Assembly (NCBI GenBank): GCA_030390025.1
Contig: CM059432.1
Span: 36,644,001-36,708,000 of the forward strand
Length of the DNA stretch: 64,000 nt
Direction of reading: 5' to 3'
From: Squalus acanthias
Lineage: Eukaryota
Position numbers and translations under genes: made by a program. The notes beneath the pieces are model-generated. The model worked only from the letters and a program-made list of their open reading frames with translations, did no database searches and was not told where the DNA came from. This document shows positions 10,733-58,700 of the stretch, piece after piece; position 1 is the first letter of the stretch; each line of letters starts with the position of its first letter.

Positions 10733-13700
10733 CTGAAAAAGAATCGAGGATAAATTTAAACAAAAGACTTTTTGCAAAGGAGTAAACTCTAAAGAGATTC
10801 ATCCTCCAGACTGCAGTGTTGTCACTGGGCTGTTTTTGCCAATAACCTATCTCAAAAACTGTAACAAAGCCAAAACATGTTTGTGTTGTACAGCAAGTTT
10901 CTCTGGTAAATTCATCAATTCAACTTGGTCCCCTCATCAGTCTAATCTGTAACTGCTAGGGAGGCCATTCGGCCCATCTTAGGTCATCTATCCAGAATTA
11001 ACCTAAAGTCCTCACGTTGCAGCTTCCAATTGGTTCTTAAAAGACCCTGACGTTTTCGTCTCCACTGTCGTCTCCTGGAGTCTATTCCCTGTGATGATCA
11101 CTCTGTGTAAGAGCTCCCTGATCCCAGTACAGCTCAGGATGCTCTCTCCAAACACAGCCCGAATTCGGAAGGTCAGAATCCATTGGGACTTTTTACATCT
11201 GTTGCATCCAGTTCCGCGCAGCACAGGTTCCAAAACAGCGAAGCCCTGGTACATTTTCTGCTTCTTGTATATCTAGTGGCCTATCTGGGGATATGGAGTC
11301 GGTCTTACGGGATGGACCCTTGCTTGATCATCTTCAGGGGTTGGAGAGAATTTCTGGCTACTGACCCCTTGCTATGCTGATGCTGTTCCAATTCACAGCC
11401 ACTCTTTGCTTTCTCCACTCTGGTCAATTTTCAATCCACCTCAGGAGCTTGCATCCTATTCCAGACTTAACTGCCTGTGTCATGGTATCAAAAGCAGTCC
11501 AGACATCTAAATGTATCACATCCACAGAATATCCATTGTTAACATGGACTGTCAGTTCCTCAAAGAACTCCAGCAAATTTGCTTGGCAACACTTCCCTCC
11601 CATAAATCCACACCAACTCCCTCTTTCCATCCCATACCTGTCTGCATGTTTCATTATCCCCACAACAGAGGTTATAAGTGTCAGCCGTGGCTCAGTTGGT
11701 AGCACACTCGACTATGAGTCAGAAGGTTGTGGGTTCAAGTCCCACTCCAGGGACTTGAGCACATAAATCTAGGCTGACACTCCAGTGCAGTGCTGAGGGA
11801 GTGCTGCACTGTCGGAGGTGCCGTCTTTCGGATGAGACGTTAAACCGAGGCCCCGTCTGCTCTCTCAGGTGGACGTAAAAGATCCCATGGCACTATTTCG
11901 AAGAAGAGTAGGGGAGTTATCCCCGGGGTCCTGGCCAATATTTATCCCTCAATCAACATAACAAAAACAGTTTATCTAGTCATTATCAAATTGGCTGCCA
12001 CGTTTCCTACACTCCAAAAGTTCATTGGCTGTAAAGCACTTTGAGACGTCAGGTGGTCATGAAAGGCACTATATAAATGTAAGTCTTTCTTTCTTTTATG
12101 CTGTTGTTTCTATCCCCTTTCTGAAGGCTGCTGTGCTGTTAGCTAGTTTCAATTCCTGTTATTCCCTTTGCAGTCACCTCAACAGGTCATTGATGAGCGA
12201 CCAGCTGGCTCTGGTTGCAGATTATTTTTGACCAGCTGTAAAGAAAAGAAAATCAATGTCCACAACATCTGCCGTTGTTGCCCCAATCAGCAGGCCCAGT
12301 ACTGGGCTTCGGGTCAGTAAACTTCAATAAGTAAACCGTCAGGTAAATGTATAAGCGAATTTAAAAACCCGAGAGCAATCTTCTTGTGGCTGAGCACCCT
12401 GGCCCGATCACTTATTCTCTCACACCAGAGAGGCCACAGGTATATTCCCCCCTCCCCCTACCCCTTCCCCACCTTCTCCTGAAGGCTACGACTTGTACTG
12501 GGATATGTTTCCGTGTGCAGGAAGCTCTCCGATACCTAGACAGTGAGTGCTGGCAGCTCCTAATATCTTCATCTTCAGCCATTTCTGTCTGATTACACCC
12601 GTGAAGCACCTTGGACTGTTTTTCTACAGTGAAAGCACTAGATAAATACAAGTTGTTGTTGTCAATATTTGACTGTGGGGGCACCTAAGCCAAACCCGAT
12701 CTTGTCCTCACCCACTGTCACCGAGTCGTGGTCAGGAGCAGGAACCAATGTTCCCTCTAATTATTTTTTTCGTGCGCAGTCCCTTTAAATTTGGTGCGCG
12801 GTATTTTTTCCAGTGGCAACAGTTGGTGAGCGGCCTGCGCAGGACCTCCTGATCGATGCGTGGCCATACACCTTAGGGGGAACGTTGGCAGGAACCCTGC
12901 TTGGTTTGTCCTCTGCCTAGCCCAGGGGCACTGAGGCCAATTATAACCCCTCTCTTTCCAAAGCTGCGATCAGTCAACAAGGCAGAGACCAGACATTGAA
13001 CTGGTATGTATGTCTCCGTACTACATCTCCGTACTACACCGGGCACCGCGCTCTCTCGCTCTGGGATCAAGGAGCCGGAGACTGGGTCTGCTTTGCAGAA
13101 ATCGCTTCTAAAATTATAACAAAAATTTCATAAAGTACACCGAAGCATGGAAGTTTTGTCCTTTAAAACCACGGCTGATAGAATCAGCTGCATCCACCGG
13201 CGACAGCCTGGGGGTCTCCGTTTACCACCCCTAGCCGCATCCGGTGTTACTTTACCAAAAACATAAAAGAGGGTCCGTCGCAGCACTTACCCTTGATATG
13301 GATGTCACAATCCGGGAGCATCAGTAGAGCCAACGGATGGACCATGGAGGAGTCACGGACAAAGACGTTCCCGTTGGATTTCACAGCTGTGAAGTAGGTC
13401 AGCCAGCGGCTCTTAAAAGATTCCTCGTTCCTGAGAGTGGATTACAAACTGTGTTAGCACAGAGGGGGGGGGGGGCGGGGGGGAGTACAGTTTCCAACTG
13501 TTCCCGACATTGGGATGGGGCTCTGGGAACTCTCTGCTCCTCTTTGAATCGTGATATTGGATCTTTAACATCCTTCTCAGCAGATGGATGGAGCTTTAGT
13601 TTAGTGTCTCACTCGAACGATGGCAATTCTCAGGATGTGGACATCTCTGGCAAGGCTGGCATTTATTTCCCATCCCTAGTTGCCCTTTAGAAGGTGGTGG

Positions 13701-16700
13701 GTATTTTTCTAGCAGTTTGTACAACTGAGTGGCTCGCTAGGCCACTTCAGAGGCCAGTTAAGAGTCAACCAAAAAGGTGTGGGACCGGAGTCACTTATAG
13801 GCCAGACTTCCTTCCCTAAAGGATATTAGTGAACCAATTTGACAGCTTCGTGGTCACTTTTACGGATACCAGATTTTTAATTCCAGATTTTTTAAACTGA
13901 ATTCAAATTCTCAAACTGCCTTGGTGGATTTGAACTCACGTTCTCTGGATTACCAGTTCAGTAATATTACTACTACTCTACTGTACCCATTTCTTTTGAG
14001 CTGACTCAGGCGCTACCGACAGCAACTGAGCAAAGCTAGAGAGTGTTATTTATTTTTCAGGTCATGTAATTCCATTCACCCACCCTCTTCTCGCACCTGT
14101 CCGAGTGACGGTCACCGGTGTCAGTCCCACTGCTCAGCACAGTTGAGACTGAGCACTTTGTTAAATGGGTGAAATGCAACTAGTTTTCCAATAACTTAAG
14201 TTAGCTGATGCAAAACCCATGCTGTTGTAAAACTATGCATCCAACTCAAGTGAGCAGTGCATTATGCACCCTCATCACTCCTCTTTGACCCACCATCACC
14301 ACCCCCACACACACACACCATAACTTGCCTGTTGACAGTAGATCTGTGCAGCAATACCTGGCCAGTCTTAGTACGGTAGACCAGGCTGTTGGGTTTGAAC
14401 TTTCCCTCTTTGGTGACTTTCCCATGTCTCAGCTGCAAAGGAAACAAGAGAAAAAGAAACCGGCTTTTTATAAACAGGGTAGCCAGCCTGGAGTCCAAAT
14501 CATAGGAACAAGAGTTGGCTATCAAGCCTCTTAAGCCTGTTCTGCCATTCAATTCGATTATGACTGATCCGTACCTCCACTCCATTTAACAGGCTTTGAT
14601 CCATATCCCTGGATTCCCTTATCTAACAAAAATCTAAGGATCTCAGTCTTGAAAATTTCAATTGACCCAGCATCCACAGCCTTTTGGGGAGTTTCAGATT
14701 TCCTCTCCGTGTGAAGAAGAAGCTTCCTCATTTCACTCGCAAAATGACGCTCCTTCGTTCTGGATTCTCTCACCAGAGGAAACAGTTGCTCTGTATCGAC
14801 CCTATCGAATACCTTTATCATTTTAAACGCCTCGATTAGATCACCCCTCAATCTTCTAAACTCAAGGGAATACAAGCCAAGTTTATGCAACCCGTCCTAA
14901 TAAATTTAACCCTTTAAGCCCTGTGTTTCCCCTAATCCCTACCACATCAGTCTCTACTCCCCAAACCAGGCATCACAGCCAAGCCTGAACCTATCCTCAA
15001 ATCCAGTATAATTGGAAAGCTATCAGAGGCATGAACCCCGGCTAATTTCCTTCTTCCATAACCTAGGGCCACTCTCAGCACTGACCAAACATCCCCAGTC
15101 TGTACTGCACCTCACAGCCATTAGGGGAGTTTCTGTTGGCCAGTGAACTTAAATACACCAACACAAAGTCATTAAAAGCTGTTGTCAGATTGCTTCTGGA
15201 ATCAAGTCTTGGATGAGACACAACTTTGTCCAGCTCAACATCAGAAAGACCAAAACCACTCCATTTTCAGCCCCAGTTATAAACTGTGCTCCCTTGTCAT
15301 CCTCCTCCCCAGCCACACACACTGAACCAGACGGCTCGCAATCTTCAACCCCGAGCCCAGTTTCAAATCCCAGATCGTCTCCATCACTAAGACTGATCGC
15401 TTCCCCCTCCATAATGTTGCCCACTTCACTGCTGAAACATTTACACTTGCCTCCATCACTTCCAGACTCCACTACTCGAATACTCTCCTTGTTGCCCCCC
15501 CATCCTTCACACACTGCAGCTTGTCCAAATATTGTGCTTGTGCCGCACGTATCCTGCTCGCTCAAACCATCGTTCCTACCCTAGTTGACCTACATGACCT
15601 CCCATCCCCAATTCATTAAATTTAAAACCCTCGCCCTCATGTAGAAGTTCCTCCATGGCCTCACCCCACCCTGTCTCTAATCTCCTCCAGCCCTATACCC
15701 CCTCCATTCTGCAAATCCCTGTCCACTCTTCAACCCACCATTGGAGGCACAGCCATCAGCTACTCGAGTACTGTCCAGAATTCCCTCCCTAAACCTCTCC
15801 ACCTTCCTCTCCTCCTCTAAACACGTTCCTCAAAACCCATCGCTTTGGGTTCTAGTCACCCCTCCTACTCTCCCTTCCTGGCTCAGCATCTATTCCCTTA
15901 CGCAAATTTGTGTCTTCTTTACGTTAAAGATGCTACACAAATGCAAGTACTAATGTAGCCACATCAGGGTAAGACAAGCCCGAGGGTTTGGAGCATATCT
16001 CTCTCACCTGGATGAGGTTGGGGTACAGGCCAGCCAGTAGCACTCCTTTAATCAGCTCCTCCTCCCCGCTGTACTGGTTACACAAAGAGTAGGAGCGTGT
16101 GCAGTCCGAAGGATTTGACACCAGGAAGGCATTGTAAACATTTTCGGAGAATTGCAGAATCAATCCTGGATCAACAGAGCACAAACAGTGCCAGGTTAGT
16201 CGACTAACACGAGAGGAAAATAATCAAATACAATTACTATATTTACATCGCAGAATTGAAATCAGAATTAAACTTGCTACGATGACTAAAACCGAGATAA
16301 AGAGACACGACAAAAATAAAAGCTAAATTATTACAAATATTCCGACAGAGGAAGGGGAGGCAGCCAATATTCCCCCTAATTTTTTTTGGGTGCAACGTTA
16401 TACAAAGTTTCACATTGGAAAAGCCGGTCGGTCCCAGGTCTGCGCGGGACCGACAGCTGCACAGCTCAGAGGGAACATTGGCGGCAGCTATTGGATGCTG
16501 TGGTAACTTATCTTTTTAACCTCATAATCCTGTCTCTTCACTACACCCTTTACCCTTAGTTCCCAAGTTCATCTCCCTTTTATTCCACATTCACACAACT
16601 CTCCTTTTAGCTGGTTCAGCTCAAATGATAAGATTATGTGTCCATTGCTCTGGATTACCGAATCTATCCTGTCCAAGTCAGAGTCATAAAGGCACAGAAG

Positions 16701-19700: not shown

Positions 19701-22700
19701 AGCACTTTCTTCCAGCCTTCAACAGCTTTAATAAACGCCATGTGATCACTTCGGCTCTCCCCACTCAGACGTGTTTTAGCCTAAAGAACGAGACAGAACC
19801 TGGGTTTGTACACCAACTTGTTGACTAGAGAAGCTGGAATTATTCTTCTCGGAGCAGAGAAGGTTAAGGGGAGATTCAAGAGCTGTTTAACGTTATGAAA
19901 GGTTTTGATAAGAGTCGATAGGAAGAAACTGTTTCCGCTGGCAAGAGGGTCAGTAACCAGAGGAGACAGATTTTAAGATAATTGGCAAAAGAACATGAGT
20001 GGAGATGAGGAGATTTTTTTTTTTTTTTTTTAACACAGCGAGTTATGATGATCTGTAATGCACTGTCTGAAAGGATGGTGGAAGCAGATTCAATAATAAT
20101 TTTCAAAAGGAAATTGGATCTATACTTGAAAAGGAAAAATTTGCAGTGCTATGGGGAAAGAGCAGGGGAATGAGACTAATTGGATAGCTGTTTCAATGAG
20201 CATTCACAGGAACGATGGGCCAAATGGCCTCCTTCTGTGCTGGATACCTTATCGTGTCTCTCAAACATACCATAGTGCTTGGCATGAGAACAGTAGAGTA
20301 TTAGTTATGTTACTGGACTAATATTCCAGAGAACGAGTACAAATCCCACCAATGGCAGTTTGAGAATTTGAATTCAGTTTAAATAAAAATCTGGAAAAAT
20401 AACCCAACTGATTCACTAATGTCCTTTAGGGAAGGAAACCTGCCGTCCTTGCCCAATCTGGCCTATATGTGAATCCACTCCCACACCATCGTGGTTGACT
20501 CTAAACTGGCCTCTGAAGTGGCCTAGGAAGCCACTCAGTTGTATCAATCCGCTACTAGTGGTTCAAGAGGCTCATCACTACTTTCAACCACAAGGGGTAT
20601 GACAGTCAATCCTGATCACATCCTCATCCGATATCCACACTTCCCACCATGGGGTGACTCGCTAATTATCAGAAGTTGTTTTTTTCTCCCCTCCCTTTCC
20701 CAGCAACACTGAAGCAAACTTTTTCCGCAGTACTAGTGTCCCCGCTGAGACCAGCTAACTCAGCACAGAGCATGAAAAGAGCCTGGGATCTTCCTGTGTG
20801 GATCAGTGCCACAATGGCATTTACCAACCAAAGGCTTGTGGGGCGGGGGGGTGGAAGGAGGGGGCTGGTCTAGTTGACAGACAGAGATGGATGTTCAAGG
20901 CTAAACTTCATTTACTGCAGGCCCCCAACCTTCAGATAATAAATTAATTTTGAGGTAGGTATCACTTTAAACCCCAAGCCCTGTCGACCTGCCCTGCTCA
21001 GAAAGAGCCTTGTATATAATCCACTACTTTTATAGGATATGCAGTTTGAATTTGAGGACGATTCGCTCTGCACAGGTCTCACCAGAACACATAGCTGACC
21101 TGATCCCTCAGGCAGTGTGCTCCACAAGCAGGAGTACAACAACCCCTCCCCTGCGAATACTTTTCCTTCCATTTCTCCTCCTGCACCTACGCCCACCCCC
21201 ACTTCAACGGCTCAGCCAAAGAGTTTCGGAACGTAAGAGTTTGGGGAAGGAGAGCGAGCATCACATCAAACACCTCTGAAAGGCTCAGCTGGGGATATCA
21301 CATCAGCACATTGAGGGGTAGAAAGAAATATTAGATTATTGTTCAACTGATTCGTTTTTATTTTGCTGTTCTTGGGATGTGGGCGATTTTGATTAAACAG
21401 TATTTCTTGCCCATCCCTAATCAGCACCGCCTCTGACCAAGCTTTTAGCCACCTGCCCCAATATCTCTTTCTTTGTCTGATTACACTTCTGTTAAGCACC
21501 TTGGGATGTTATCCAATGTTAAAGGCCCTATATAAAAGTAAGTTGTTGCTGTAAAAAGCTAATGACCTTTTGGCACACGAGTGGTTAACGTGCACAGATG
21601 TGCTGGCGGTAGCTGCATGTTTTCCCATCATCCCCTGGTCTCCTGTCAATCATCCCTTTCTCGTCAAGACAGCCGTTTAAATTGGCCGCTCCATGTTGCC
21701 ACATCAGGAAGAGACTTACTGAGGTCACTGGGAGGGATTCAGAGGACATTTGAGTTGTGTGTAGGCCAGACCACGTAGGAGTGGCGGGTTCCCTTCCCTG
21801 AAGGAAATTAGGGAACTAGTTGGGTTTTTAAGGAAAATCTGGTTTTCTTGGCCAATTTTTCTGGTACCGGCCCCTCAGTTTAGGAATTTAGCAGAGTGTG
21901 AGGGAGAATATTGTGTTGAACCAATCCATGGAAATATACATGTGCACACATATACACATACATAGCTATACAAATATACACACACACACATCCCAAATGG
22001 AGCAAATCAAACACTTAAAAAACCCAGAGTCTACGCAGTAGAACAAAGTAGTAAGAAGATTTGAATAGTTCCAGTTATAATGCTACAAAAGCCCAGGTAC
22101 AATATCACACGTCTTCCTGCAGTGACACATTGCAAAGGTTTATTTTTTGCTTTAACATTAATATTGCACAAATAGTCAGCGTTTGCTTGTGAAGTAAGAG
22201 CCTCCCCCGCAGTCCAAAAATAACCCGATTCATTTTTTTTATTCAGTGAAACCTCAGCAAGTCTCTTCCTGATTTGGCAACATGGAGCAGCCAAATTAAA
22301 CGGCTGCCTTGATGAGAAGGAGATGATTGACAGGGGACCAGAGGATGCTGGGAAATCATGCTGCTGCCGTCAGCAGATGTCTGAGTCTCTGTGCACGGTT
22401 AACTGCTCAAGTGCCAAAAACATTAGCTTTTTACAACAAAACGCTCCAAGGCACTTCACAGGAGCATAATCACACAAAAATTGACACCAAGCCAAAGAAA
22501 AAGACGTTAGAGAGGAGACCAACAGCTTGGTCAAAGGTTTTAAGGAGGGTCAGCCTCCTTAAATGCTCAGTTGGTAGCACTCTCGTCTCTGATTCAGAAG
22601 GTTGTAGGTTTAAGTCCCACTCCAGAGACTTGAGCACAAAAATCTAAGCTGACACTCCAGTGCAGTACTAAGGGAGTGCTGCACTGTCGGAGGTGCCGCC

Positions 22701-37700: not shown

Positions 37701-40700
37701 ATCAGTTCCCCTCCCCAACCACCTACCCCTATTTTCTCCTCTTTATTAAAGGTAGCGACTGTTGCTGGGTGCAGAGAGCCTTTCTGAACTGTGCCCAAGT
37801 GGAGATTCTTTGACAGTGGGTGTTGGTTGACTATTCAATCATGAACTGCATCACAGCCAAGCTGGCATCCACATACAAGCGAGTGAATTCCACCAAGGGA
37901 GCTCGCTTGATTTGGAGGGGGATTGGTTGCTTTTTCTCATCTTGAGGCCCACAAATGTTGAGGAAAATTGTACACTGCTTACTGGGATCAGCTAATGCAG
38001 CACAGGACAGGAACTCAATGTGGGACCTTCTGATCTGTAAAGTTCAGGACAAAACCAGTTGGTGCTTTCACCTACTGAGCCAGCGGGAGGGAGTACAATA
38101 CTCTCAACATCACATCAAAGTGCTCCCACCACCAGTGTCAGAGCTGTACCTAGCAGTACCTTCACCCCTATGTTATCCAGCTTAAAATGCTTCCTCGAGA
38201 CACAACCCAGTCTCAGACAGACAGGATCTATAATTGCACTGCTGAGCGTTTTGCACAGTGCATGTGGACTTGGTATGAAAATTTCACACACCCACCAATA
38301 TGCTTTACTAAAACCCAGTGCCAGCAGACAAGAGTACATAAAAGCATATGTCAACGTTCAAGATTAGATTGGATAGGTGGCTGAAGGACAAGGGGTTGAC
38401 GGGATATGGCAACAGGGTGGGTAAATGTGACTGGAACCATTTGTTCGCATGGAGGGTAAACGCCGACATGAGCTGATTGGGCTGAATAGCCTGTTTCCAT
38501 GTTATAATTTCTATGTATTTCTTATATTGTATAACTACACTAAACAAGGCATTCAGCCGGCTGCTGGGTAAAGCCTTAAACACATCCATTTACTGTGCTA
38601 AAGTGGGAATTGTGTCCCTGTACTGACTTTGGCTGAGGAGCTCTACCCTTCATGCTGGAATCCTGCCCAAGATTCTTGACATGAGCTCAGACAAGGAGTG
38701 TCAGTGTGAGAGAGAACATAGGAATTGCTAGACGGAAAAACAGCAAGGTCCATCTCGTTCGCCTTCTACCATCCCGGTAGTCGCATGATACAATGAGAAT
38801 GGAGCTGTTGACTTATTGTAGTAATCAATCTCTTATCAATTCGTCTGCAACAAACCCAGATTGAGGCACGGAAAATCCGAGTGGTGGAAAGGTTTGGGAA
38901 CCATAGGTCCAAAGTCACATGCTCCTCCCAAGCACAGTACACTTATCATATATCATGTCTCAAACTATGATGATTACAGCCTAATCCAACTCTACCCACA
39001 CCAGATAGTGATATCTACTGGATGATGACCAGTGCCAACCCTGGCTGATTCATCTCCTCTCTAGCGCACAAGCGGCGGAGGCAATTATGACACATGTCCC
39101 GTTATTCTAGCCGAGATCAATAACTCAGGAGGGCCCAGGAATCAAACTTAGGGCCTTTCTGGCCTGTGTAGTTGAGGAATAAACCAGGCAGAAGAGTCAC
39201 CCACTAAACCAGAAAGAGAAAGAGCTAAAAATATCTTTCCCCTATTTTCAGCATCAAACCCCAGTGATAACCCAAACAGGTTTCCCTTACCTGACTCGCT
39301 GCGAGCGTCAATATGCACAATAGTGTCAGTGACCAAGTCGAGGTCAGGAACAGGGTCCTCCTCATCCTGTCAGACATCACAAAACAAAGAGCCAATTATA
39401 ACCACCAGTAAGTCAAACAGATTTACCAAATAAGATACAGTTTGTCACTAATAATTTATTTAAATCCCTTGTGAGCTTAATGACTGATTCTTTTGTGAAA
39501 GAAAAATTACACGCAGCAATTGACTGCTGGATTACCACGGTGAGTCACAGGTCACATCTCTCAAAGAGCCCGTTAGTAATTCACTGAGATCCCTGATGGC
39601 TACCAATGGCTGAATCGAACCGTGTGGTGCAATACAAATCAGGAAAGTCCCAAGTTTGATCCTCGGTCTGTACCGAATTAGCTGATCTTAGCTGGGGCAC
39701 CACAACTGGCTCAGAAAGGGGCTAGGTAAGGGTGGAAGGAACATTTAGCAGACCTCCTATGGTGGTGCTCACGGCGAGTTGGATGATACACTGCTTTGTG
39801 CATAAGGTGTGACAGAGAAAGGGAAAGTTACAGGAGGTTATAGGGAACGGTAACAGGGAAGTTACAGGGAACAGTAGCATAGTGGTAATGTCACTGGGCT
39901 AATAATCCAGAGGCCTGGACTAATGGCCCAGAGGCGTGAGTTCAAATCCCACCACTGCAGCTGGGGAATTTAAATTCAGTTAATTAAATAAAATCTGGAA
40001 TAATTACGAGTATCAGTAATGGTAACCATGAAACTATCGGATTGTCGTAAAAACCCATCTGGTTCACTAATGTCCTTTAGGGAAGGAAACCTGCCGTCCT
40101 TACCTGGTCTGGCCTATATGTGACTCCAGACCCACAGCAACTGCCCTCTGAAATGACCTAGCAAGTCACTTAGTTGTAACTAACCGTTACGAAACAAAAT
40201 AAGAATGAAACCGACGGACCACCCGGCATCGACCTCGGCACCAGCTACGGACACGGCAACGGCACACCCAGCCCAGTAAACCCTGCATAGTCCTCCTCAC
40301 CAACATCTGGGAGAGCTGTTCCACAGGCTAGTCAAGCAACAGCCTGACATAGTCATACTGACAAATTTATTCCTTTCAGCCAATGTCCCAAACTCCTCCA
40401 TCACCATCCCTGGCTATGTCCTGTCCCACCGGCAGGACAGACCCACCAGGGGTGGCGGCACAGTGGTATACAGTCGGGAAGGAGTGTCCCTGGGAGTCCT
40501 CAACATTGAATTCCGGACCCCATGAAGTCTCATGGCTTCAGGTCAAGCATGGGCAAGGAAACCACCTACCGCCCTCCCTCAGCTGATGAATCAGTACTCC
40601 GCCATGTTGAACACCACTTGTAAGAAGCACTGAGAGTAGCAAGGGCACAGAATGTACTCTGGGTAGGGGACTTCAATGTCCATCACTAAGAGTGGCTCGG

Positions 40701-43700
40701 TAGCACCAGTACTGACCGAGCTGGCCGAGTCCAGAAGGACATAACTGCTAGTTTAGGCCTGCGACAGGTGGTGAGAGAACCAACACGAGGGGGAAAAACC
40801 TACTTGACCTCGTCCTCACCAATCTACCTGTCGCAGATGCATCTGTCCATGACAGCATTGGTGGCATTGACCACCGCACAGTCATTGTGGAGACGAAGTC
40901 CCGTCTTCACACTGAGGACACCCTCCATCGTGTTGTGTGGCACTACCACCATGCTAAATGGGATAGATTCAGAACAGATCTAGCAGCTCAAAACTGGGCA
41001 TCCATGAGGCACTGTGGGGCAGCAGCAAAATTGTATTCCACCACAATCTGTAACCTCATGGCCCGGCATATCCCTCACTCTACCATTACCACCAACAAGG
41101 AGTGCAGAAGAGCATGCCAGGAGCAGCACCAGTCGTACCTAAAAATGAGGTGCCAACCTGCGGAAGCAGCAAGCTATAGACACAGCTAAGCGATCCCACA
41201 ATCAACGGATCAGATCAAAGCTCTGCAGTCCTGCCACATCCAGTCGTGAATGGTGGTGGACCATTAAACAACTAACGGGAGGAAGAGGCTCCAAGAATAT
41301 CCCCATCGTCAATGATGGTGGAGCCCAACATGTGAGTGCAAAAGACAAGGCTGATGTGTTTGCAACCAACTTCAGCCAGAAGTGCCGAGTGGATGATCCA
41401 TATCGGCCTACTCCCGAGGTCCCCACCATCACAGAAGCCAGTCTTCAGTCAATTCGATTCACTCCATGTGATATCAAGAAACGGCTGAGTGCACTGGATA
41501 CAGCAAAGGCTATGGGCCCCGACAACATCCCGGCTATCGTGCTGAAGACTTGTGCTCCAGAACTAGCCGCGCCTCTAGACAAGCTGTTCCAGTACAGCTA
41601 CAACACTGGCATCTATCCGACAATGTGGAAAACTGCCCGGTTATGTCCTGTCCACAAGAAGCAGGACAAATCCAACCCGGCCAATTACCGCCCCATCAGT
41701 CTACTCTCAATCATCAGCAAAGTGATGGAAGGTGTCATCGACAGTGCTATCAAGCGGCACTTACTCACCAATAACCTGCTCACTGATGCCCAGTTTGGGT
41801 TCCCGACCTCATTACAGCCTTGGTCCAAACATGGTCAAAGGAGCTGAATTCCAGAGGTGTGGTGAGAGTGACTGCCCTTCACATCAAGGCAGCATTTGAC
41901 AGAGTCTGGCATCAAGGAGCCCTAGTAATACTGAAGTCAATGGGAATCAGGGGGAAACTCTCCACTGGCTGGAGTCATACCTAGCACAAAGGAAGATGGT
42001 TGTGGTGGTTGAAGGTCAATCATCACAGCCCCAGGACATCGCTGCAGGAGTTCCTCATGGCAGTGTCCTAGGCCCAACCATCTTCAGCTGCTTCATCAAT
42101 GACCTTCCCTCCAACATAAGGTCAGAAATGGGGATGTTCGCTGATGACTGCACAGTGTTCAGCGCCATTCACAACTCCTCAGATAATGAAGCAGTCCATG
42201 CCTGCATGCAACAAGACCTGGATGACGTTCAGGCTTGGGCTGATAAGTGGCAGGTAACATTCGCGCCACAGAACTGCCAGGCAATGACTATCTCCAACAA
42301 GCGAGAGTCTAACCACCTCCCCATGGCATTATTATCGCTGAATCCCCCACTGTCAACATCCTGGGGGTCACCATTAACCAGAAACTTAACTGGACCAGCC
42401 ACATAAACACTGTGGCAACAAGAGCAGGTCAGAGGCTAGGTATTCTGCGGCAAGTGTCTCACCTCCTGACTCCCCAAAGCCTTTCTACCATCTACAAGGC
42501 ACAAGTAAGGAGTGTGATGGAATACTCTCCACTTGCCTGGATGAGTGCAGCTCCAACAACACTCAAGAAGCTCGACACCATCCAGGACAAAGCAGCCCGC
42601 TTGATTGGCACCCCAAACACCACGCTAAACATTCACTCCCTCCACCACCGGCGTACCGTGGCTGCAGTGTGTACCATCTACAAGATGCACTGCAGCAACT
42701 CGCCAAGGCTTCTTCGGCAGCATCTTCCAAACCCGCGACCTCTTCCACCTAGAAGGACAAGGGCAGCAGAGGCATGGGAACACCATCACCTCCAAGTTCC
42801 CCTCCAAGTCACACACCATCCTGACTTGGAAGTATATCGCTGTTCCTTCATCATCACTGGGTCAAAATCCTGGAACTCCCTCCCTAACAGCACTGTGGGA
42901 GTACCTTCACCACACGGACTGCAGCGGTTCAAGAAGGCGGCTCACCACCACCTTCTCAAGGGCAACTAGGGATGGGCAATAAATGCTGGCCTTACCAGCG
43001 ACGCCCAGATCCCATAAGTGAATAAAAAAAAGGTTAAATGTGACAAAGGAAGACTTTTAATATACTAGCAGATCTTCCATGGCATTGCTTGTGATATTGC
43101 CCAGGGAACACTTGTTGGTATCAGGGGTGGTCCTGGGATTCAGCAGTACTGCAGTCGGAATCCCAGGGTCTAGCAGTTCTTTGAGGTGGGATACCAGGGC
43201 CAGGGAGGGGGTTCCTGGGTACGGCAGAGTAGTGGTTACGTTACTGAACTAGCAATCCAGAGGCCTGGACTAATAATCCAGAGACCATGAACTCACTGGT
43301 TCACTAATAGGGTACATCCTGGGATTGTTGGGAGGGGATTCCTGGGACCTAGAGGTATTGGGGAGGGACTTCTCTTAGGTCTGGGGGCATTGGGAGTGGT
43401 TACAGGATATGGGGGGCACTGGGAATGCAGGGGTTGGTGAGCATTGAGGGGGTGTCTGAGGAACGAGGGGTTTAGGAGCATTAGGGGTTGCTGCGATCTG
43501 GCAGCCTCGGATGGAGCAGGGTCCCTTTGTGATGGACAGGAGCCCAGGTGAATAGGAACCAAACTGCCATTGACCCTTCTCCAACCATCAGGCCCCCCAA
43601 CCACCATGTCAGGTACTCCCCATCAACACTTTCCCCACCCTCAGCCAGTTCCCACCGTCAAAATTTAAGCGGAAATTTTCTGCTAGTTAAAATTAATGGA

Positions 43701-46700: not shown

Positions 46701-49700
46701 TGGGAGGATTTAGGAAAGAGTAAATTTAAAAGCACCGAGAGAAATGTCAAGGCTCTAGAGCAGAATAGAGTTTTGGGGAAAAATAAGCAGAGTGGGTCAG
46801 GAAAGGACAGAGAGAGTAACAAACGTAATAAGGCATCAGTGACTAAGGTGACATCAGGGAAAAATAGAAATAAGTCAAAGCTAAAGGCACTATATCTGAA
46901 TGAGCGAAGTATTCGCAACAAAATTGATGAATGAATAGGTTTGATCTAATAGTCATTACGGAGATGTGGTTGCAAAGTGACCAAGGTTGGGAACTAAATA
47001 TTCCAGGATACTTAACTTTTAGAAGAGATAGGCAAAATGGAAAAGGAGGAGGTGTAGCCCTGATAATAAAGGATGGGATAAAGACAGTAGAGAGAAAGGA
47101 TCATAGCTCCAAAAATCAAGAAGTAGAATCAGTTTGGGTGGAGCTAAGAAACAGCAAGGGGCAGAAAATATTGGTGGGAGTTGTTTATCAGCCCCCAAAC
47201 AGTAGTTGTAATGTAGGGCAGAGTATGAATCAGGAAATTAGAGGCGCATGTAACAAGGGTAATACAGTGATCATGGGGGACTTTAATCTACATATAGACT
47301 GGGCAAACCAAATTTGCAGTAATAGTGTGGAGGACGAATTCATGGAGTGTATGCAAGATAGTTTTCTAGATCAGCATGTTGAGGAACCAACTGGGGAACA
47401 GGCCATTTTAGATCTAGTATTGTGCAACGAGAAAGGATTAATTAATAACCTTGTAGTAAAGGGGCCTTTAGGGAAGAGTGACCATAATATGATAGAATTT
47501 TATTGAGTTTGAAAGTGATTTAGTTAAATCCGAAACTAGGGTCTTAAATCTAAACAAAGCAAACTACGTAGGTATGATGGGTGAGTTGGCTAAGGTAGAT
47601 TGGGAAACTACATTAAAAGGTATGATGGTAGAGAAGCAATGGCTAGCATTTAAAGAATTAATACATAATTTACAACAAATGTACATTCCTTTAAGGCACA
47701 AAAACCCCACAGGAAAAGTGGTCCAACAAGAGAAGTTAAAGATAGTATCAGATCAAAGGAAGAGGCTTATTATGTTGCCAAAAAGAGTAGTAAGCCTGAG
47801 GATGGGAGGATTTTAGAATTCAGCAAATGAGGACCAAGAAATTGATAGAGGGGGAAAATAGAACATGAGAGCAAACTAGCGAGAGACATAAAAACAGACT
47901 GTAAAAGCTTCGATAGGTATGTAAAAAGGAAAAGATTAGTGAAAGTAAGTGTGGGTCCCTTACAGGTGGAGACAGGAGAAATTATAATGGGGAATAAAGA
48001 AATGGCAGAGAAATTAAACAAATACTTTGTGTCTGTCTTCACGGAAGAAGACGCAAAAAACTTGCCAGAAATAGTGGAGAACCAAGGGTCGAGCGAGAAT
48101 GAGGAACTGAAAGAAATTAGTATTAGTAAAAAAAAATAGTACTGGAGAAATTAATGGGACTGAAAGCCGTTAAATCCCCTGGACCTGATGGCCTACATTC
48201 TAGGGTTTTGAAAGAGGTGGCTATAGAGATAGTGGAGATTTTGGTTGTCATTTTCCAAAATTCCATAGATTCTAGATCCCGCGGATTGGAAGGTAGCAAA
48301 TGTAACCCCATTATTTAAGAAAGGCGGAAGAGAGAAAAGGGGGAACTACAGACCAGTTAGCCTGAAATCAATAGTAGGGAAAATGTTAGAATCTATTATT
48401 AAGGACGTGGCAACAGGGCACTTAGAAAATAATAATAGGATTGGGCAGAGTCAACACGGATTTATGAAAGGGAAATCATGTTTGACGAATCTGTTAGAGA
48501 TTTTTTGAGGTTGTAACTAGCAGAATAAATAAGGGGGAACCAGTGGATGTGGTGTATTTGGATTTTTAGAAGGCATTCGATAAGGATTAAGGATTGGTTA
48601 ATGGACAGAAAACAGAGTGTACAAATAAATGGGTCATTTTCGGGTTGGCAGGCTGTAACTAGCGGGGTACCACAAGGATCAGTGCTTGGGCCTCAGCTAT
48701 TCACAATCTATATCAATGATTTGGATGAGGGGACCAAATGTAATATATCCAAGTTTGCTGATGATACAAAGTTGGGTGGGGATGTAAGTTGTGAGGAGGA
48801 TGCAAAGAGGCTTCAAGGGGATATAGACAAGCTACATGAGTAGGCAAGAACATGGCAAATGGAATATAATGTGGAGAAATGTGAAATTATCCACTTTGGT
48901 AGGAAAAATAGAAAAGCAGAGTATTTTTTAAATGGTGAGAGATTGGGAAATGTTAGTGTTCAGAGGGGCCTGGGTGTCCTTGTACACAAATCACTGAAAG
49001 TTAACATGCAGGTACAGCAAGCAATTAGGAAAGTAAATGGTATGTTGGCCTTTATTACAAGAAGATTTGAGTATTAAAGGCATCTTACTGCAATTATATA
49101 GGGCCCTGGTGAGACCACACCTGGAGTATTGTGTAGTTTTGGTCTCCTTACCCAAAGAAGGATACACTTGCCATAGAGGGAGTGCAACAAAGGTTCACCA
49201 GACTGATTCCTGGGATGAGGGTGATTGTCCTATGGAGGAGAGATTGAGTAGACTAGGCCTAGATTCTCTAGAGTTTAGAAGAATGAGAGGTGATCTCATT
49301 GAAACAAACAAAATTCTTACAGGGCTTAACAGAGTAGATGCAGAGAGGATGTTTCCCCTGGCTGGGGAGTCTAGAACCAGGGGTCACAGTCTCAGAATAA
49401 GGGGTCGGCCATTTAGGACTGAGATGAGGAGAAATTGCTTCACTCAGAGGGTGGTGAATCTTTGGAATTCTATACCCCAGAGGGCTGTGGAGGCTCAGTC
49501 GTTCAGTATATTCAAGACAGAGATCAATAGATTTTTGGATATTAAGGGAATCAAGGGACATGGGGATAGTGCAGGAAAGTGGAGATGAGGTAGAAGATCA
49601 GCCATGAACCTATTGAATGGCGGAGCAGGCTCGAAGGGCCAAAGGGCCTACTGCTGCTCCTATTTCTTATGTTCTTATGTACAACAGCAACGCCAAGGCT

Positions 49701-52700
49701 TCTTCAACAGCGCCTCTCAAACCTACGACCTCTAGCACCTGGAAGGACAAGGGCAGCAGGTGCATGGGAACACCACCTCCACATTCCCCTCCAAGTCACA
49801 CACCATCATGACTTTGAAATATATCGCCGTTCCTTCATCGTCACTGGGTCAAAAACCTGGAACTCCCTCCCTAACAGCACTGTGGGAGTAACTTCACCAC
49901 ACGGACTGCAGCGGTTCAAGGCAACAGCTCACTACCACCTTCTCAAGGGCAATTAGGGATGGGCAATAAATGCTGGCCTTGCCAGCGACACCCACATCTC
50001 ATGAATGAATAAAAAACTTATTCAATCGTCAGAAATTCCATGAACAAACTAAAATTACCTCACAATACACTGAAAATTCATCATTTAAGTACTTTCCAAG
50101 TTGTTAAGTTAAAAATAAATTAAGCTTTAAAATTGGTTCAGGTGCAAATTTTTAACTGCGCATATACAACCAAAATAGATGAAAAAAAAGGAATTTTCTA
50201 TAACAATGTTTTATTTTCTAACCATCAACAAAAACCCCACAAACTGCTACTGCTGTCGGTCATGATAACAGCTGCTCACACGTGCTGCTTGTATTTTTCT
50301 GTGAAGAGTTTGTAATAGAAAGCAAAAATGTTAATATATTTATACAATTTCATCACTTGCTGAAATAAATGCTTTGAGATTTCAAACTCCAGCTTCTTCT
50401 AAAATCTTTTGGATAAACAGTAAAGAAGCTCTCAGTTTCTCATGAGGAGGGGACACACCCTTGAACTGATGGTGCACAGATTGCAGGCTGGGGAAATTCT
50501 TCAAACTGTACACGCTCTGACTTAACGACCGAATATTTAGTTGAAGCCACAGGCTTTTCAGACAGGTTATCAGTGTTACCAACTCGAGACATAAAAATGG
50601 AGGTAAATATATGAGTCAGGGTTCCCACCCAATAGGGATTCAGTAGCCCCAACCAAAGTTCTGAGCAAGCACTGGATCAGGCTTAGCGGAGAAGCCCTCC
50701 ACAGTTGAATATCCTGCTGACACTCACCATCTAGGCTGCACTGGTAAGGGAGGGCACCTTTAGGAAGGGGAGAAAGTAGAAATTAATTGACAAGAAATCC
50801 AGTGAAGCAGGGAACTGAATGCTTTCCAGGAAGGGAGGATGGACAGTCAGGATGTCTGGGGTTGGTCCAACTTATTTTCTACCTATCTCTGTCCAGAATT
50901 TCCCCATCTCTGCTGAAAGTGCTGGTTCTTGCTGGGGTATGGCTTCATGAGTGCCGACAAACTTCCAGTACCTCACCTAAGAGGCCATTCTTTATCTGTG
51001 AGCATAGAGACAGTGAATGCTGGAGGCATTACAGCCAAGAACATCTTCTCATCAGGCATCCACATGCACACACTTTCCAGCAGGGGTCAGTGATTAGTGA
51101 TCAGGCTCACAAGGCTAACTGCAGCGCAAGTCAACCGCTTCCCCAGCTGAGATCAGTTAACTCTGCACAGATCTAACCAGGAGCCTCTGGATCATCTGTA
51201 TGAGTCAGTTATTCATCAGAGAAACAAGCTCATTAAATATTCTTTAAAAGGGATGAAGGATGCTGAACAGTGTACGGCGGTGCTGGTGGGTATTGTTCGA
51301 CATCAGGTATCCTGCATGTTGATATTGAAAAAAATCCATTTATAGGGTGTCTTATCATGCGTCTTAGAAACATCCCACAGCACCTCACAATGAATTACCA
51401 GAAGTAATCACAGTTACTGTGTAGACAAACATGACAGCCATTTCGCACACAGCAAGATCCCCACAAACAACACTGACCAGTTAATCTGTTGTTGGTGGTA
51501 TTGGCCGAGGGAGCAATGTTGGCCAGAACACCGCGGGAGCTCCTCCTCAAGTACTGTCATCCAATCTTCAACACCCACCTGAATGGTTTAAAGTCTCATT
51601 CAAAAGATGATGCAGCATTCCCTCTGTACTGCACTGGGTCAAGATTATGTGGTCAAGTGGGGCTTGAACCTTCTGACTTAGAGGCGAGAATGCTACCAAC
51701 AGAGCCAAGCTAACACTGAAGTTGCAGCATCCCCAATGTTGAGGACTATCAGGGCCACTCCCTCCAAACTGCATACCACTGTGCAGCCACCTCTGGTGGG
51801 TCTGCCCTGCCGGTGGGAAGGCCACGGATGGTGATGCGACATGGGATGATGGGTATGATTCTGTGCGTATGACTAGGTCAGACTGTTGCTTGACTAGTCT
51901 GTAGGATTGCTCTTCCAAGTTTGGCACAAGTCCCCAGATGTTAGTGAGGAGGACTTTGCAGGGTCAACTGGCTGGGTGTGCCTTTGTCGTGTCCGAATCC
52001 AATGCCTAGGTCGATGTCTGTCTGGTTTTATTCTTATTGTACTTTTCTGTAGCTGTTTGTTACAACTGAGTGGCTTGCTAGGCCATTTCAGAGGGAACTT
52101 AAGAGTCAACCACAGTGCTGTGGGTCTGGAGTCACTTATAGGCCAGACCGGGTAAGGACGGCAGGTTTCTTTCCCTAAAGGGCCAGTTGGGTTTTTACGA
52201 CAATCCAATAGCTTCATGCTCACCATTACTGATACTAGCTTTTTATTCCAAATTTATTGCTCTTCACTGTAGCGAAGACATTCCCACGACCTCCCCTGAA
52301 CATTAATATGCTGCATGTCAGCATACATCACGTCCTTCTACTGCTTTACCAAGTTGCACGTGTCAGCTTGGCTCAGGCGATAGCGCTCTTGTCACTGAGT
52401 CAGAAGGTTGTGGCTTCAAGCCCCACTCCAGGAATTGAGCACGTAATCTATAGAACCTTGCAAAGATTAGTGGTAGGCCAGAGGATTGGGAATTTTTTGT
52501 AAAACCAGCAAAGGATGACTAAAAAAATAAAAGAGTGAGATGATAGATTATGAGAGTAAACAGAGCATCTACAGGTATATAAAAAGGTAGAGAGTAGCTA
52601 AAGTAAACGTTGGTCCCTTAGAGAATGAAACTGGGGAATTAATAATGGGAAACAGGGAAATGGCAGAGACTTTGAACAAATAATTTGTATCAGTCTTCAC

Positions 52701-55700: not shown

Positions 55701-58700
55701 TTACTCAGTTAGTCATTCTTCATCTATGAGTTCAGAGGATGATTTATAGAATCACACAGCACAGGAGGCCATGCAGCCCATTGTGCCTGTGCTGGCTCTT
55801 TGAAAGAGCGATGCAATTAGCCCCACTCCCATCCTCTTTCCCCATAGCCCTCAGCATCGGAGGATTTTATCTGGATGTGAACAACACTGGCAAGGTCACA
55901 TGTATTGCCCATCTCTGGTTAACCCTGAGATAGTTGTGGTGGTGGGCCTCCGTGAGTAGCAATTCATTGTACAACAGAGTAGCTTTCTAGGCCAGTCCAG
56001 AAAACAATAAGAGTCAGCTAAGTAGTGTGGGACTGGAGTCAATCACGGGCCACAATGGGGAGGGATGGCATGTTAACTCATCGAGTTATTACACCAATCC
56101 AGCAGCTTTCATAGTCAGTTTTTCTGATAGTCCAGTACTGTAAGGAAAAGATTAATTAAACTGTCTTGAACTCTCTTTATATTGTAGTAATATTAACTTC
56201 TGGCTTTTGCCTGTTAAATGAGTTTCTGTTCGAAGAATGAAAATGTAATCATAAGACAGGTTTGTTTTATTTAGGATAAATGTTTGCCATACCAGTGTTT
56301 CAGTTTAGACAGTGGGAATTAAAAGTTGCACCACACAGTCAGTCAGGGAAATTTTAGTTGATAAGAGGATGCTTTCCCTGGCTGGGGAGTCTAGAACTAG
56401 AGGTCACAGTCTCAGAATAAGGGGTCGGCCATTTAGGACTGAGATGAGGAGAAATATTTTTCACTCAAAGGGTTGTGAATCTTGGAATTCGCTACCCCTG
56501 AGGGCTGTGGATGTTCTGTCGTGGAGTATATTCAAGTCAAAGATTGATAAATTTTTGGATATTAAGGGAATCAAGGGATATGGGGATAGTGCGGGAAGGT
56601 GGAGTTGAGGTAGAAGATCGGCCATGATCTTATTGAATGGCAGAGCAGACTCGAAGGGCCCAATGGCCGACTCCTGATACTATTTCTTATGTTCTTATAT
56701 GTTAAAATCTTCAGCAGCAGACAAACAAGCTTCCTTTGTTCGCTTGAGCCTTGAGAGATAGAGATAGAATGGCTGCCTATACCCTCATATATCTTTCAGC
56801 TTTACAGGGGAAGTCAATGGGAATCAGGGGAAGAACCCTCCACTGGCTGGAGTCATACCTAGCACAAAGGAAGATGGTTGTGGTTGTTGGAGGTCAATCA
56901 TCTCAGCCCCAGGACATCGCTGCAGGAGTTCCTCAGGGCAGTGTCCTGGGCCCAACCATCTTCAGCTGCTTCATCAATGACCTTCCCTCTATCATAAGGT
57001 CAGAAGTGGGGATGTTCGCTGATGATTGCAGTGTTCAGTTCCTCAGATAATGAAGCAGTCCATGCCCGCATGCAGCAAGACCTGGACGACATTCAGGCTT
57101 GGGCTGAGAAGTGGCAGGTAACATTTGTGCCACACCAGTGCCAGGCAATGACTATCTCCAACAAGCGAGAGTCTGACTGCCACCCCTTGACATTCAATGG
57201 CATTACCATCGCCAAATCCCCCACCATCAACATCCTGGGGGGTCACCATTGACCAGAAACTTAACTGGACCAGCCACATAAATACTGTGGCAACAAGAGC
57301 AGGTCAGAGGCTGGGTATTCTGCGGCGAGTGTCTCAACTCCTGACTCCCCAAAGCCTTTCCACCATCTACAAGGCACAAGTAAGGAGTGTGATGGAATAC
57401 TCTCCACTTGCCTGGATGAGTGCAGCTCCAACAACACTCAAGAAGCTTGACACTATCCAGGACAATGCAGCCCGCTTGATTGGCACCCCATCCACCACCT
57501 TAAGCATTCACTCCCTCCACCACCGGTGCACCATGGCTGCAGTGTGTACCATCTACAAGATGCACTGCAGCAACTCGCCAAGGCTTCTTTGGCAACACCT
57601 CCTAAACCCCTGTCACCTAGAAGGACAAGGGCAGCAGGCGCATGGAAACACCACCACCTGCAAGTTCCCCTCCAATTTACACACCATCCTGACTTGGAAA
57701 TATATCGCCGTTCCTTCATCGTCACTGGGTCAAAATCCTGGACTCCCTCCCTCACAGCACTGTGAGAGTACCTTCACCACACGAACTGCAGCGGTTCAAG
57801 AAGGCAGCTCACCACTACCTTCTTCAGGGCAATTAGGGATGGGCAATAAATGCTGGCCTTGCCAGCAACACCCACATCCCAGGAACGAATATTTAAAAAA
57901 AGGGAACAGGAAATGTGTTACATCTTATGGCAGTTAAATGTCCTCCCAGGACATAATGAGCAAAGACACGTTTTGACCATCAATTCGAGAAGTTATAATT
58001 TCAATTGATTCCCGAGGCCTAACATTCACATGGGATAGAAATATATTCCAGGGACTTTAACTCCTCCACAGCCTCATCTGCGTAAGGAATGAGGACAAGT
58101 AATAACACTGGCCCAGATTTTGCGATCAGTGACGAACGGACAGCGCTCGCCGCTGACCTCGGAAAAAGCTGCCCATAAAGATTTAGCTGGCTCTGTAGCA
58201 CAGCTTTCTTCTATTCCGACGTGACTATGAATTTGGCGCCATCTGTGACATCCAGCAATAGTGCAGGCAGCAGGCAAGCTGATCAGCCAATTAGATTGAA
58301 GAATGCTCAGACAGCAAAGCAGGAAGTAAAAAGCAGGGATTATAATTCACATTTAATCACTCTACAGAAAGCAAAATAAAGATTGGGACATACACATGGG
58401 ATTAAGGTAGAAACTGAAATATCAAACAAACTTTTAAAAAAATTTAAAAAAATTTAATAATTGAATTTTCAAATGTTCTTCTGAGGGAATGAGACTCCAC
58501 ACTTGTAAAATTAGTTTTTCAGGGCCAGAGAGGTTGTTCAGCAGTAATTATGACTTGGTACACCGTTAAAAACGGCTTAATATTTTCATTTTTATGGTTT
58601 TTACGGTGAGAATAGTGCATAAAAAGTCGATGTTCATGTCAAATCACTGATTGAGTGTTGATTGCAACTGCGAAGACTGCAACAGCACGCCCTGTGGAGG

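Follow-up and report, generated by a model that had tools for sequence, protein, structure and literature searches.

The 64,000-nucleotide stretch of the Squalus acanthias (spiny dogfish) genome analysed here (assembly GCA_030390025.1, contig CM059432.1, positions 36,644,001 to 36,708,000 of the forward strand; hereafter the window) carries, at 39867-43031 on its plus strand, an element that is identified from its sequence as a decayed full-length copy of the abundant elasmobranch (shark-and-ray) Zenon long interspersed element (LINE). The element is ∼3.2 kb long and consists of a tRNA-like head, a non-coding body of ∼330 nt, a single frame for an APE endonuclease and a reverse transcriptase (APE-RT), and an A-tail, all contiguous (Table 1). 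An earlier note on this DNA had placed its start at 39866, one base off the family boundary at 39867, and had left undecided whether the family was already catalogued. It is: the first 400 letters of the published elasmobranch consensuses (SquAca_Zenon-1/2/3, CarCar, RhiTyp, ScyCan and HypSab_Zenon-1; Stuart et al. 2026, PMC13343379) and the description given with them agree with the window element in family, size (∼3.3 kb), lack of ORF1 and A-tail, with no difference in structure seen. Membership of the elasmobranch Zenon family is indicated by the sequence match, the missing ORF1, the poly-A tail, and the presence of APE and RT in one open reading frame (ORF), which is broken in this copy. 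The definition of a short interspersed element (SINE), short and non-coding, does not fit a 3.2 kb element with APE-RT, and fits its short derivatives only.

The first endonuclease motif, VLLTNIW, begins at 40290, and the APE-RT frame ends at 42969, upstream of a stem-loop tail that bears AATAAA and closes in A8; A-rich ends were also found on three other long copies in the window. A tblastn search with residues 111-945 of protein P0002 matched the element with an E value of 1e-124, and a 956-aa APE-RT protein was collinear with 40564-42954 in four tblastn pieces. Pfam RVT_1 matched the frame (E 8e-15), while the Pfam endonuclease domain was not matched by the broken pieces. In a tree of 134 RT regions, whose rows carry no family names, the element fell into a clade with single-ORF relatives (support 1.00), most of them at 39–48% identity, and stood apart from the window's other LINEs (27–30% identity). 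The stem-loop tail (42930-43031) gave a fold z of -2.66 against shuffles, and the body folded no better than shuffles (z +0.8). This copy is dead. It has private stops at 40621, 40687 and 40753, positions at which ∼99% of the aligned contig depth in run X1 shows another letter (see below). The earlier observation that a tRNA head runs into an APE-RT frame without ORF1 was confirmed for the window element, in which the APE-RT frame is not intact but broken into pieces, in several frames and with stops. The lack of room for ORF1 was likewise borne out (across 39867-40330, the three frames reach at most 40 codons without a stop); however, this is not special to the present element, as all Zenon elements are described in PMC13343379 as lacking ORF1 and ending in poly-A.

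Table 1. Positions of the Zenon element's parts, its flanks and related copies in the window.
Feature	Position	Strand	Remarks
Candidate left target-site duplication	39808..39821	+	12/14 match to 43039-43052
Short 9-13 nt repeats like the head's first letters; single-copy flank	39822..39866	+	Depth 52 vs 774,089 in next bin (X1)
tRNA-derived head	39867..39962	+	Box A, duplicated anticodon arm, box B; acceptor stem unmatched; Rfam
Non-coding body	39963..40204	+	Common to the window's short elements, 84-86% identity to 13627-13990 and 20284-20620
Linker with ATG 40205 out of frame with the endonuclease	40205..40289	+	Endonuclease frame here arginine-rich, no Met
Single APE endonuclease and reverse transcriptase frame	40290..42969	+	tblastn, Pfam; frameshifted and stop-broken in this copy
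3' tail with stem-loop, A8 (43024-43031) and AATAAA (42978, 43021)	42970..43031	+	Also in short elements, 87% to 13700-13633
Candidate right target-site duplication	43039..43052	+	12/14 match to 39808-39821
First TTTT past the head, in flanking DNA; possible Pol III stop	43055..43058	+	24 letters into flank
5'-truncated Zenon copy (59-166 and 1197-2718), CR1-type piece inside	59..2725	+	97% and 94% identity
Short element: head without duplication, body and Zenon tail directly joined	13627..13990	-	85% over 338 aligned letters
Second short element, same head-body-tail build	20284..20620	+	85% over 308 aligned letters
5'-truncated Zenon copy	49677..50016	+	88% identity
Older copy: body and start of APE, no head	51725..52258	-	74.6% identity over 558 columns
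5'-truncated Zenon copy	56810..57903	+	89% identity

The head carries box A (TAGCATAGTGG, 39875-39885) and box B (GTTCAAATCC, 39940-39949) near the 5' end of the element, as in a type 2 unit of RNA polymerase III (hereafter Pol III). The Rfam tRNA model matched 39874-39953 over model positions 7-64 of 71 at 27.9 bits (gathering score 29; E 0.0011), and the alignment holds a 22-nt insertion that corresponds to a second anticodon-like arm; the two arms lie at 39894-39910 and 39915-39931, with a period of 21. The two boxes and the ∼21-bp duplication between them, as first reported, could thus be located in the sequence and tied to a tRNA match. ARAGORN called no tRNA in the window or in any of 45 related loci, and the fold of the head had a z of -2.19 against shuffles. 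Judged by eye from the consensus rows, both boxes persist in all five species, with differing spacers, and have the canonical form in those of white shark, whale shark and catshark. The shape of the additional hairpin that lies between them (39915-39931 in the window) also seems to be preserved across these rows: the dogfish type and the white shark/whale shark/catshark type have different 5-bp stems, both of which pair, and a similar loop, and the stingray row is without the hairpin. This conservation hints at selection on RNA structure. By eye, most rows carry AGT in the first loop; as an anticodon, this would correspond to threonine.

Two lines of evidence bear on whether the head is part of the family. 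The 10 vertebrate Zenon consensus rows of Stuart et al. 2026 (PMC13343379) were compared by eye over their first 400 letters. All seven from sharks and rays (white shark, whale shark, catshark, stingray and three from spiny dogfish; 5 species) open with head, body and linker, while none of the three others (two hagfish, one coelacanth) has a head within these letters, and all have runs of four or more T's there. From 39867 on, SquAca_Zenon-1 and the window agree at almost every one of these letters, and the duplication is present in both. Among the 1,003 CR1-group consensus rows, six box B words match 6, all of them elasmobranch Zenon, with a box variant in stingray, and an 18-letter body motif matches 7, again all elasmobranch Zenon. 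The second line is contig depth. Contigs of 4 of 24 runs (organisms A, B, D and E) were aligned to 39625-43224 at 85% likeness and summed in 120-letter bins, giving a depth that is not copy number (X1, moreover, may be the source sample). In all four runs depth rose at the head: flank values of 52, 60, 27 and 11 gave way to 774,089, 1,046,283, 371,750 and 515,520 in the head bin, and the first full APE bin of the same runs stood at 850,565, 1,365,913, 569,342 and 193,459; depth climbs toward the 3' end, as 5' truncation predicts. Because all seven elasmobranch consensuses start with the head and depth begins there in 4/4 runs, we assign the head to the LINE family rather than to a SINE that happens to lie upstream, and the earlier suggestion that such a head is this LINE's 5' end is upheld on both counts.

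The alternative is a local chimera or a consensus artefact, in which a SINE fragment came by chance to lie upstream of a headless LINE. Some observations lean that way. The consensuses were extended automatically from RT seeds (PMC13343379) and could have walked into an abundant SINE; no contig bridging head and APE was present among the aligned contigs of the four runs; body depth is about the sum of head and APE depth in X1 and X6, so that some of the depth at the head may come from short elements; and no head was found upstream of the copy at 51725-52258 (score 18, shuffle maximum 26). The last result qualifies the use of that copy as independent support, which holds for the junction of body and APE but not for the head. 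Nevertheless, order and junction are the same in the window locus and in 7/7 consensuses (5 species), the heads of two short elements in the window are without the duplication that the LINE head has, and the longest genomic insertions given in PMC13343379 match the consensus lengths (3322 vs 3314, 3299 vs 3288 and 3299 vs 3293). We therefore regard the chimera as largely refuted and its probability as very small indeed. Two contigs enter the head from the flank and cover ∼25 letters (the bridge rule being 31 letters). Intact ORFs are rare in the Zenon data of the same source (0/2313, 1/1419 and 3/612). Searches with head and body by blastn and nhmmer gave no match in the 45 related loci, of which only 2 belong to the same RT clade, leaving little power, and exact scans for the body motif in genome-contig and viral-contig collections gave 0 matches. 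Since the head is present in a ray and in sharks, it would predate the shark-ray split, which is dated in the excerpted text of PMC2746220 to at least 180–200 million years ago.

Pol III stops at runs of four or more T's in vertebrates. From 39867 onward, the sense strand is free of such runs (T4) until 43055, and runs of four number 11 for A, 11 for C, 8 for G and 0 for T within the element. Over 6,663 letters, five family copies have no T4 at all; 12 other LINE pieces have 79 in 17,146 letters. No T4-free stretch of the window is longer than the one that holds the element (3,564 letters; 4 of 1,218 segments of that length are without T4), and the two next longest on the plus strand are copies of the same family. 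By comparison, all 30 of the ORFs of at least 400 aa from the 45 related loci have at least one T4. A codon-aware null that keeps the amino acids expected 3.9 T4 (p 0.010), and single-letter shuffles gave the same p of 0.010. No Pol III terminator lies inside the element, the first T4 being at 43055, but the excess over composition is only suggestive: the absence of T4 fits Pol III and is no proof of it.

A number of results weigh against Pol III transcription of the coding element. With codon usage kept, 1.9 T4 were expected (p 0.10), and with dinucleotides kept 1.8 (p 0.15). The amino-acid null overstates the effect because it also flags the control loci L007, L017 and L037 (3/15 control loci, p 0.013–0.047). 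The opposite strand of the family copies likewise has long T4-free stretches, up to 1,235 letters, and the low homopolymer content would therefore be partly compositional. The five family copies are not independent of each other, and of the control loci just two, L007 and L012, share the element's RT clade. Translation poses a further difficulty, as Pol III RNAs carry no m7G cap and there is no usable in-frame AUG ahead of the APE motif. Among eight ATGs in 39867-40330, only that at 39888 is in frame by count, and it meets a stop within a few codons. By eye, no canonical slippery heptamer was seen between the out-of-frame ATG at 40205 and the APE frame. A counterpart of this ATG is visible in 6/7 elasmobranch consensuses, again by eye over the letters compared; it is thus a conserved ATG ∼80–86 letters before the endonuclease motif, and the short frame that starts from it ends inside the endonuclease. 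Translation is accordingly the weak step of the Pol III reading, which would need internal, non-AUG or frameshift initiation. Lastly, it is argued in Kojima 2024 (PMC10886601, excerpted text) that such elements are held to ∼1.3 kb by the processivity of Pol III.

With these points set against it, we still consider it fairly probable that active copies were transcribed by Pol III from box A and box B as a coding LINE. Template switching, or recombination with a tRNA SINE, could have given a Zenon element without ORF1 its head before the shark-ray split. Starting at the head, Pol III would pass through the 3.2 kb body, which is free of TTTT, and stop at a T-run in the flanking DNA; in Alu, Pol III likewise starts at the head and ends in the flank. 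Loss of the acceptor stem may spare the head from cleavage by RNase P and Z, the uncapped RNA would be translated without a normal in-frame AUG, and the protein would then copy the RNA that encodes it, using target-primed reverse transcription at the tail, with short head-body-tail elements arising as internal deletions mobilised in trans. Taken as a whole, shark and ray Zenon would be an autonomous SINE, that is, a coding retrotransposon that Pol III has been transcribing, over at least 180–200 million years, from a captured tRNA promoter, with a 2.7 kb coding strand purged of T-runs, uncapped translation without an in-frame AUG, and SINEs produced by internal deletion; this fuller proposal is offered tentatively, at somewhat less than an even chance. 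As for the idea in the earlier note of an autonomous LINE that captured a SINE or tRNA head, the head stands as a family trait, whereas Pol III transcription and the direction of capture are what we infer.

It is also conceivable, though unlikely in our view, that RNA polymerase II (Pol II) makes the coding RNA, using a promoter in the body or reading through out of host DNA, with the head serving as an RNA structure, as a TFIIIC-bound insulator or for the short derivatives only, and with the lack of T4 reflecting composition. The conservative T4 nulls, neither of them significant, agree with this account, as do AATAAA and the A-tail, which fit Pol II (all Zenons being A-tailed, according to PMC13343379), and the seemingly conserved shape of the extra hairpin, which would point to a role as RNA. 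It explains less readily why the first letter of the family lies a few positions ahead of box A, as expected for a Pol III start, why both boxes are kept in the consensus rows of five species, and why T alone among the bases is without a run of four on the sense strand. Less probable again is a division of labour in which Pol III makes the template that is inserted, in effect a 3.2 kb SINE-like RNA, and the protein is supplied in trans by rarer Pol II RNAs, which carry a cap and are read-through or spliced products. The problem of cap and AUG vanishes under this arrangement, exonised pieces of the Zenon ORF are found in annotated shark genes (P0001, P0006, P0013 and P0014), and short trans-mobilised forms exist; on the other hand, an ORF kept open across species would be easier to understand if copies use their own protein.

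The head is real and shared throughout a LINE family that has been published, and seems not to have been described. The main text of PMC13343379 contains no occurrence of tRNA, promoter or polymerase III, and the Zenon head may therefore be regarded as deposited but undescribed there. No description of a tRNA head on shark Zenon was found in the literature searched, the coverage of which excludes most subscription journals and Repbase Reports. Several known systems are comparable. The bipartite LINE-derived SINEs (Bov-tA, CoeSINE4 and SINE2_Gav; Kojima 2018, PMC5786205) resemble the short elements of the window in joining a tRNA head to a 5' and a 3' part of a LINE; however, their head is on the non-autonomous form only and their 5' part comes from RTE or Vingi only, whereas here the coding LINE itself is headed and belongs to the Zenon clade. 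RTE-1_DAn and elements related to it (PMC5786205) are also LINEs containing tRNA-like sequence, but are of the RTE clade, with the position and function of the tRNA-like part unstated, and were set aside as a source of false hits. Cassandra, Helenus and Ajax (TRIMp3; Kojima 2024, PMC10886601) are non-SINE retroelements whose Pol III promoter derives from a small RNA gene, yet they are described in the excerpted text as being of long terminal repeat type, non-coding and at most 1.3 kb. The Zenon-partnered SINEs of butterflies and bivalves share the Zenon 3' tail, and the tail alone, with no LINE head reported in the excerpted texts (PMC6685494, PMC11481361).

Heads of the tRNA-like kind are normally confined to short non-coding SINEs. 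Non-LTR retrotransposons are held to use Pol II and SINEs Pol III, with Pol III elements staying short (PMC10886601, excerpted text). If the Pol III reading is true, a 3.2 kb coding LINE with a tRNA head throughout sharks and rays would be a natural exception to this rule, a testable vertebrate case of a Pol III messenger RNA with cap-independent translation, and a way in which deletion by itself leads straight from LINE to SINE. Under Pol II, too, the finding corrects the anatomy of a major shark repeat, the 5' end of which is easily misfiled as a SINE.

The short elements of the window (Table 1) are joined by two more degraded ones (55867-56074 and 28759-28920). The joint between body and tail, from 40136-40141 to 42959, recurred in 4/4 runs, with 4–12 contigs per row, and these head-body-tail elements look like internally deleted (bipartite) forms of headed Zenon. 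The shark SINE SacSINE1 and other DeuSINEs (PMC5499810, PMC2746220, excerpted texts) are similar in their tRNA-derived head, shark hosts and a size near that of the short elements. An identification of the body with the Deu domain of SacSINE1 was tried and dropped: the body was within shuffle range against 4/4 Deu-type SINE copies of the window (copies matching by eye the Deu sequence printed in the supplement of Kojima 2018). The tail was within shuffle range against 4/4 as well, with no shared L2-type tail, and the head exceeded the shuffle maximum against 1/4, around box B only. A separate tRNA SINE family is present at 22560-23004, 11677-12092, 58806-59138, 32164-32507 and 51400-51717; by eye, its middle matches the printed Deu domain; the family is dissimilar to the Zenon body and tail, and is probably SacSINE1.

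At the element ends, the possible degenerate target-site duplication (TSD) noted earlier retains its 12/14 match (chance 0.005–0.007), but is offset at both ends, with 45 nt separating it from the head and 7 nt from the A-tail, and is considered a plausible candidate. No empty insertion site was among the 15 joints listed in the aligned contigs (with 10,389 further joints). The short repeats said to precede the head were confirmed at 39822-39866, where they resemble its opening letters. Their number varies between runs (+24 letters in X1, -11 letters in X9), and they are possibly a stutter at the 5' junction turned minisatellite. A second head with the same duplicated arm lies at 43211-43283, 180 letters downstream of the tail, followed by a few body letters. 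In two of the truncated copies T's occur inside the A-tail (2718-2735 and 57885-57903, T5 and T3 after AA), either as tail decay or as the trace of an end terminator. An antisense CR1-type LINE piece (163-1199) is nested in the Zenon copy at 59-2718 with a 4-letter overlap, and the CR1-type family was therefore moving after that Zenon insertion.

Elsewhere, in-frame pieces of the Zenon ORF occur in annotated shark and ray gene models (P0001, P0006, P0013, P0014 and P0016), reflecting exonisation or annotation error, and the best named protein matches to the RT-proximal frame were exonised pieces in genes of Heptranchias, Pristiophorus, Mobula, Scyliorhinus and Heterodontus. The window also holds a near-perfect inverted repeat at 19360-19527 (∼80 bp per arm, fold z -20) and a tandem repeat at 60555-60856, with a unit of ∼66–69 letters in some four and a half copies.

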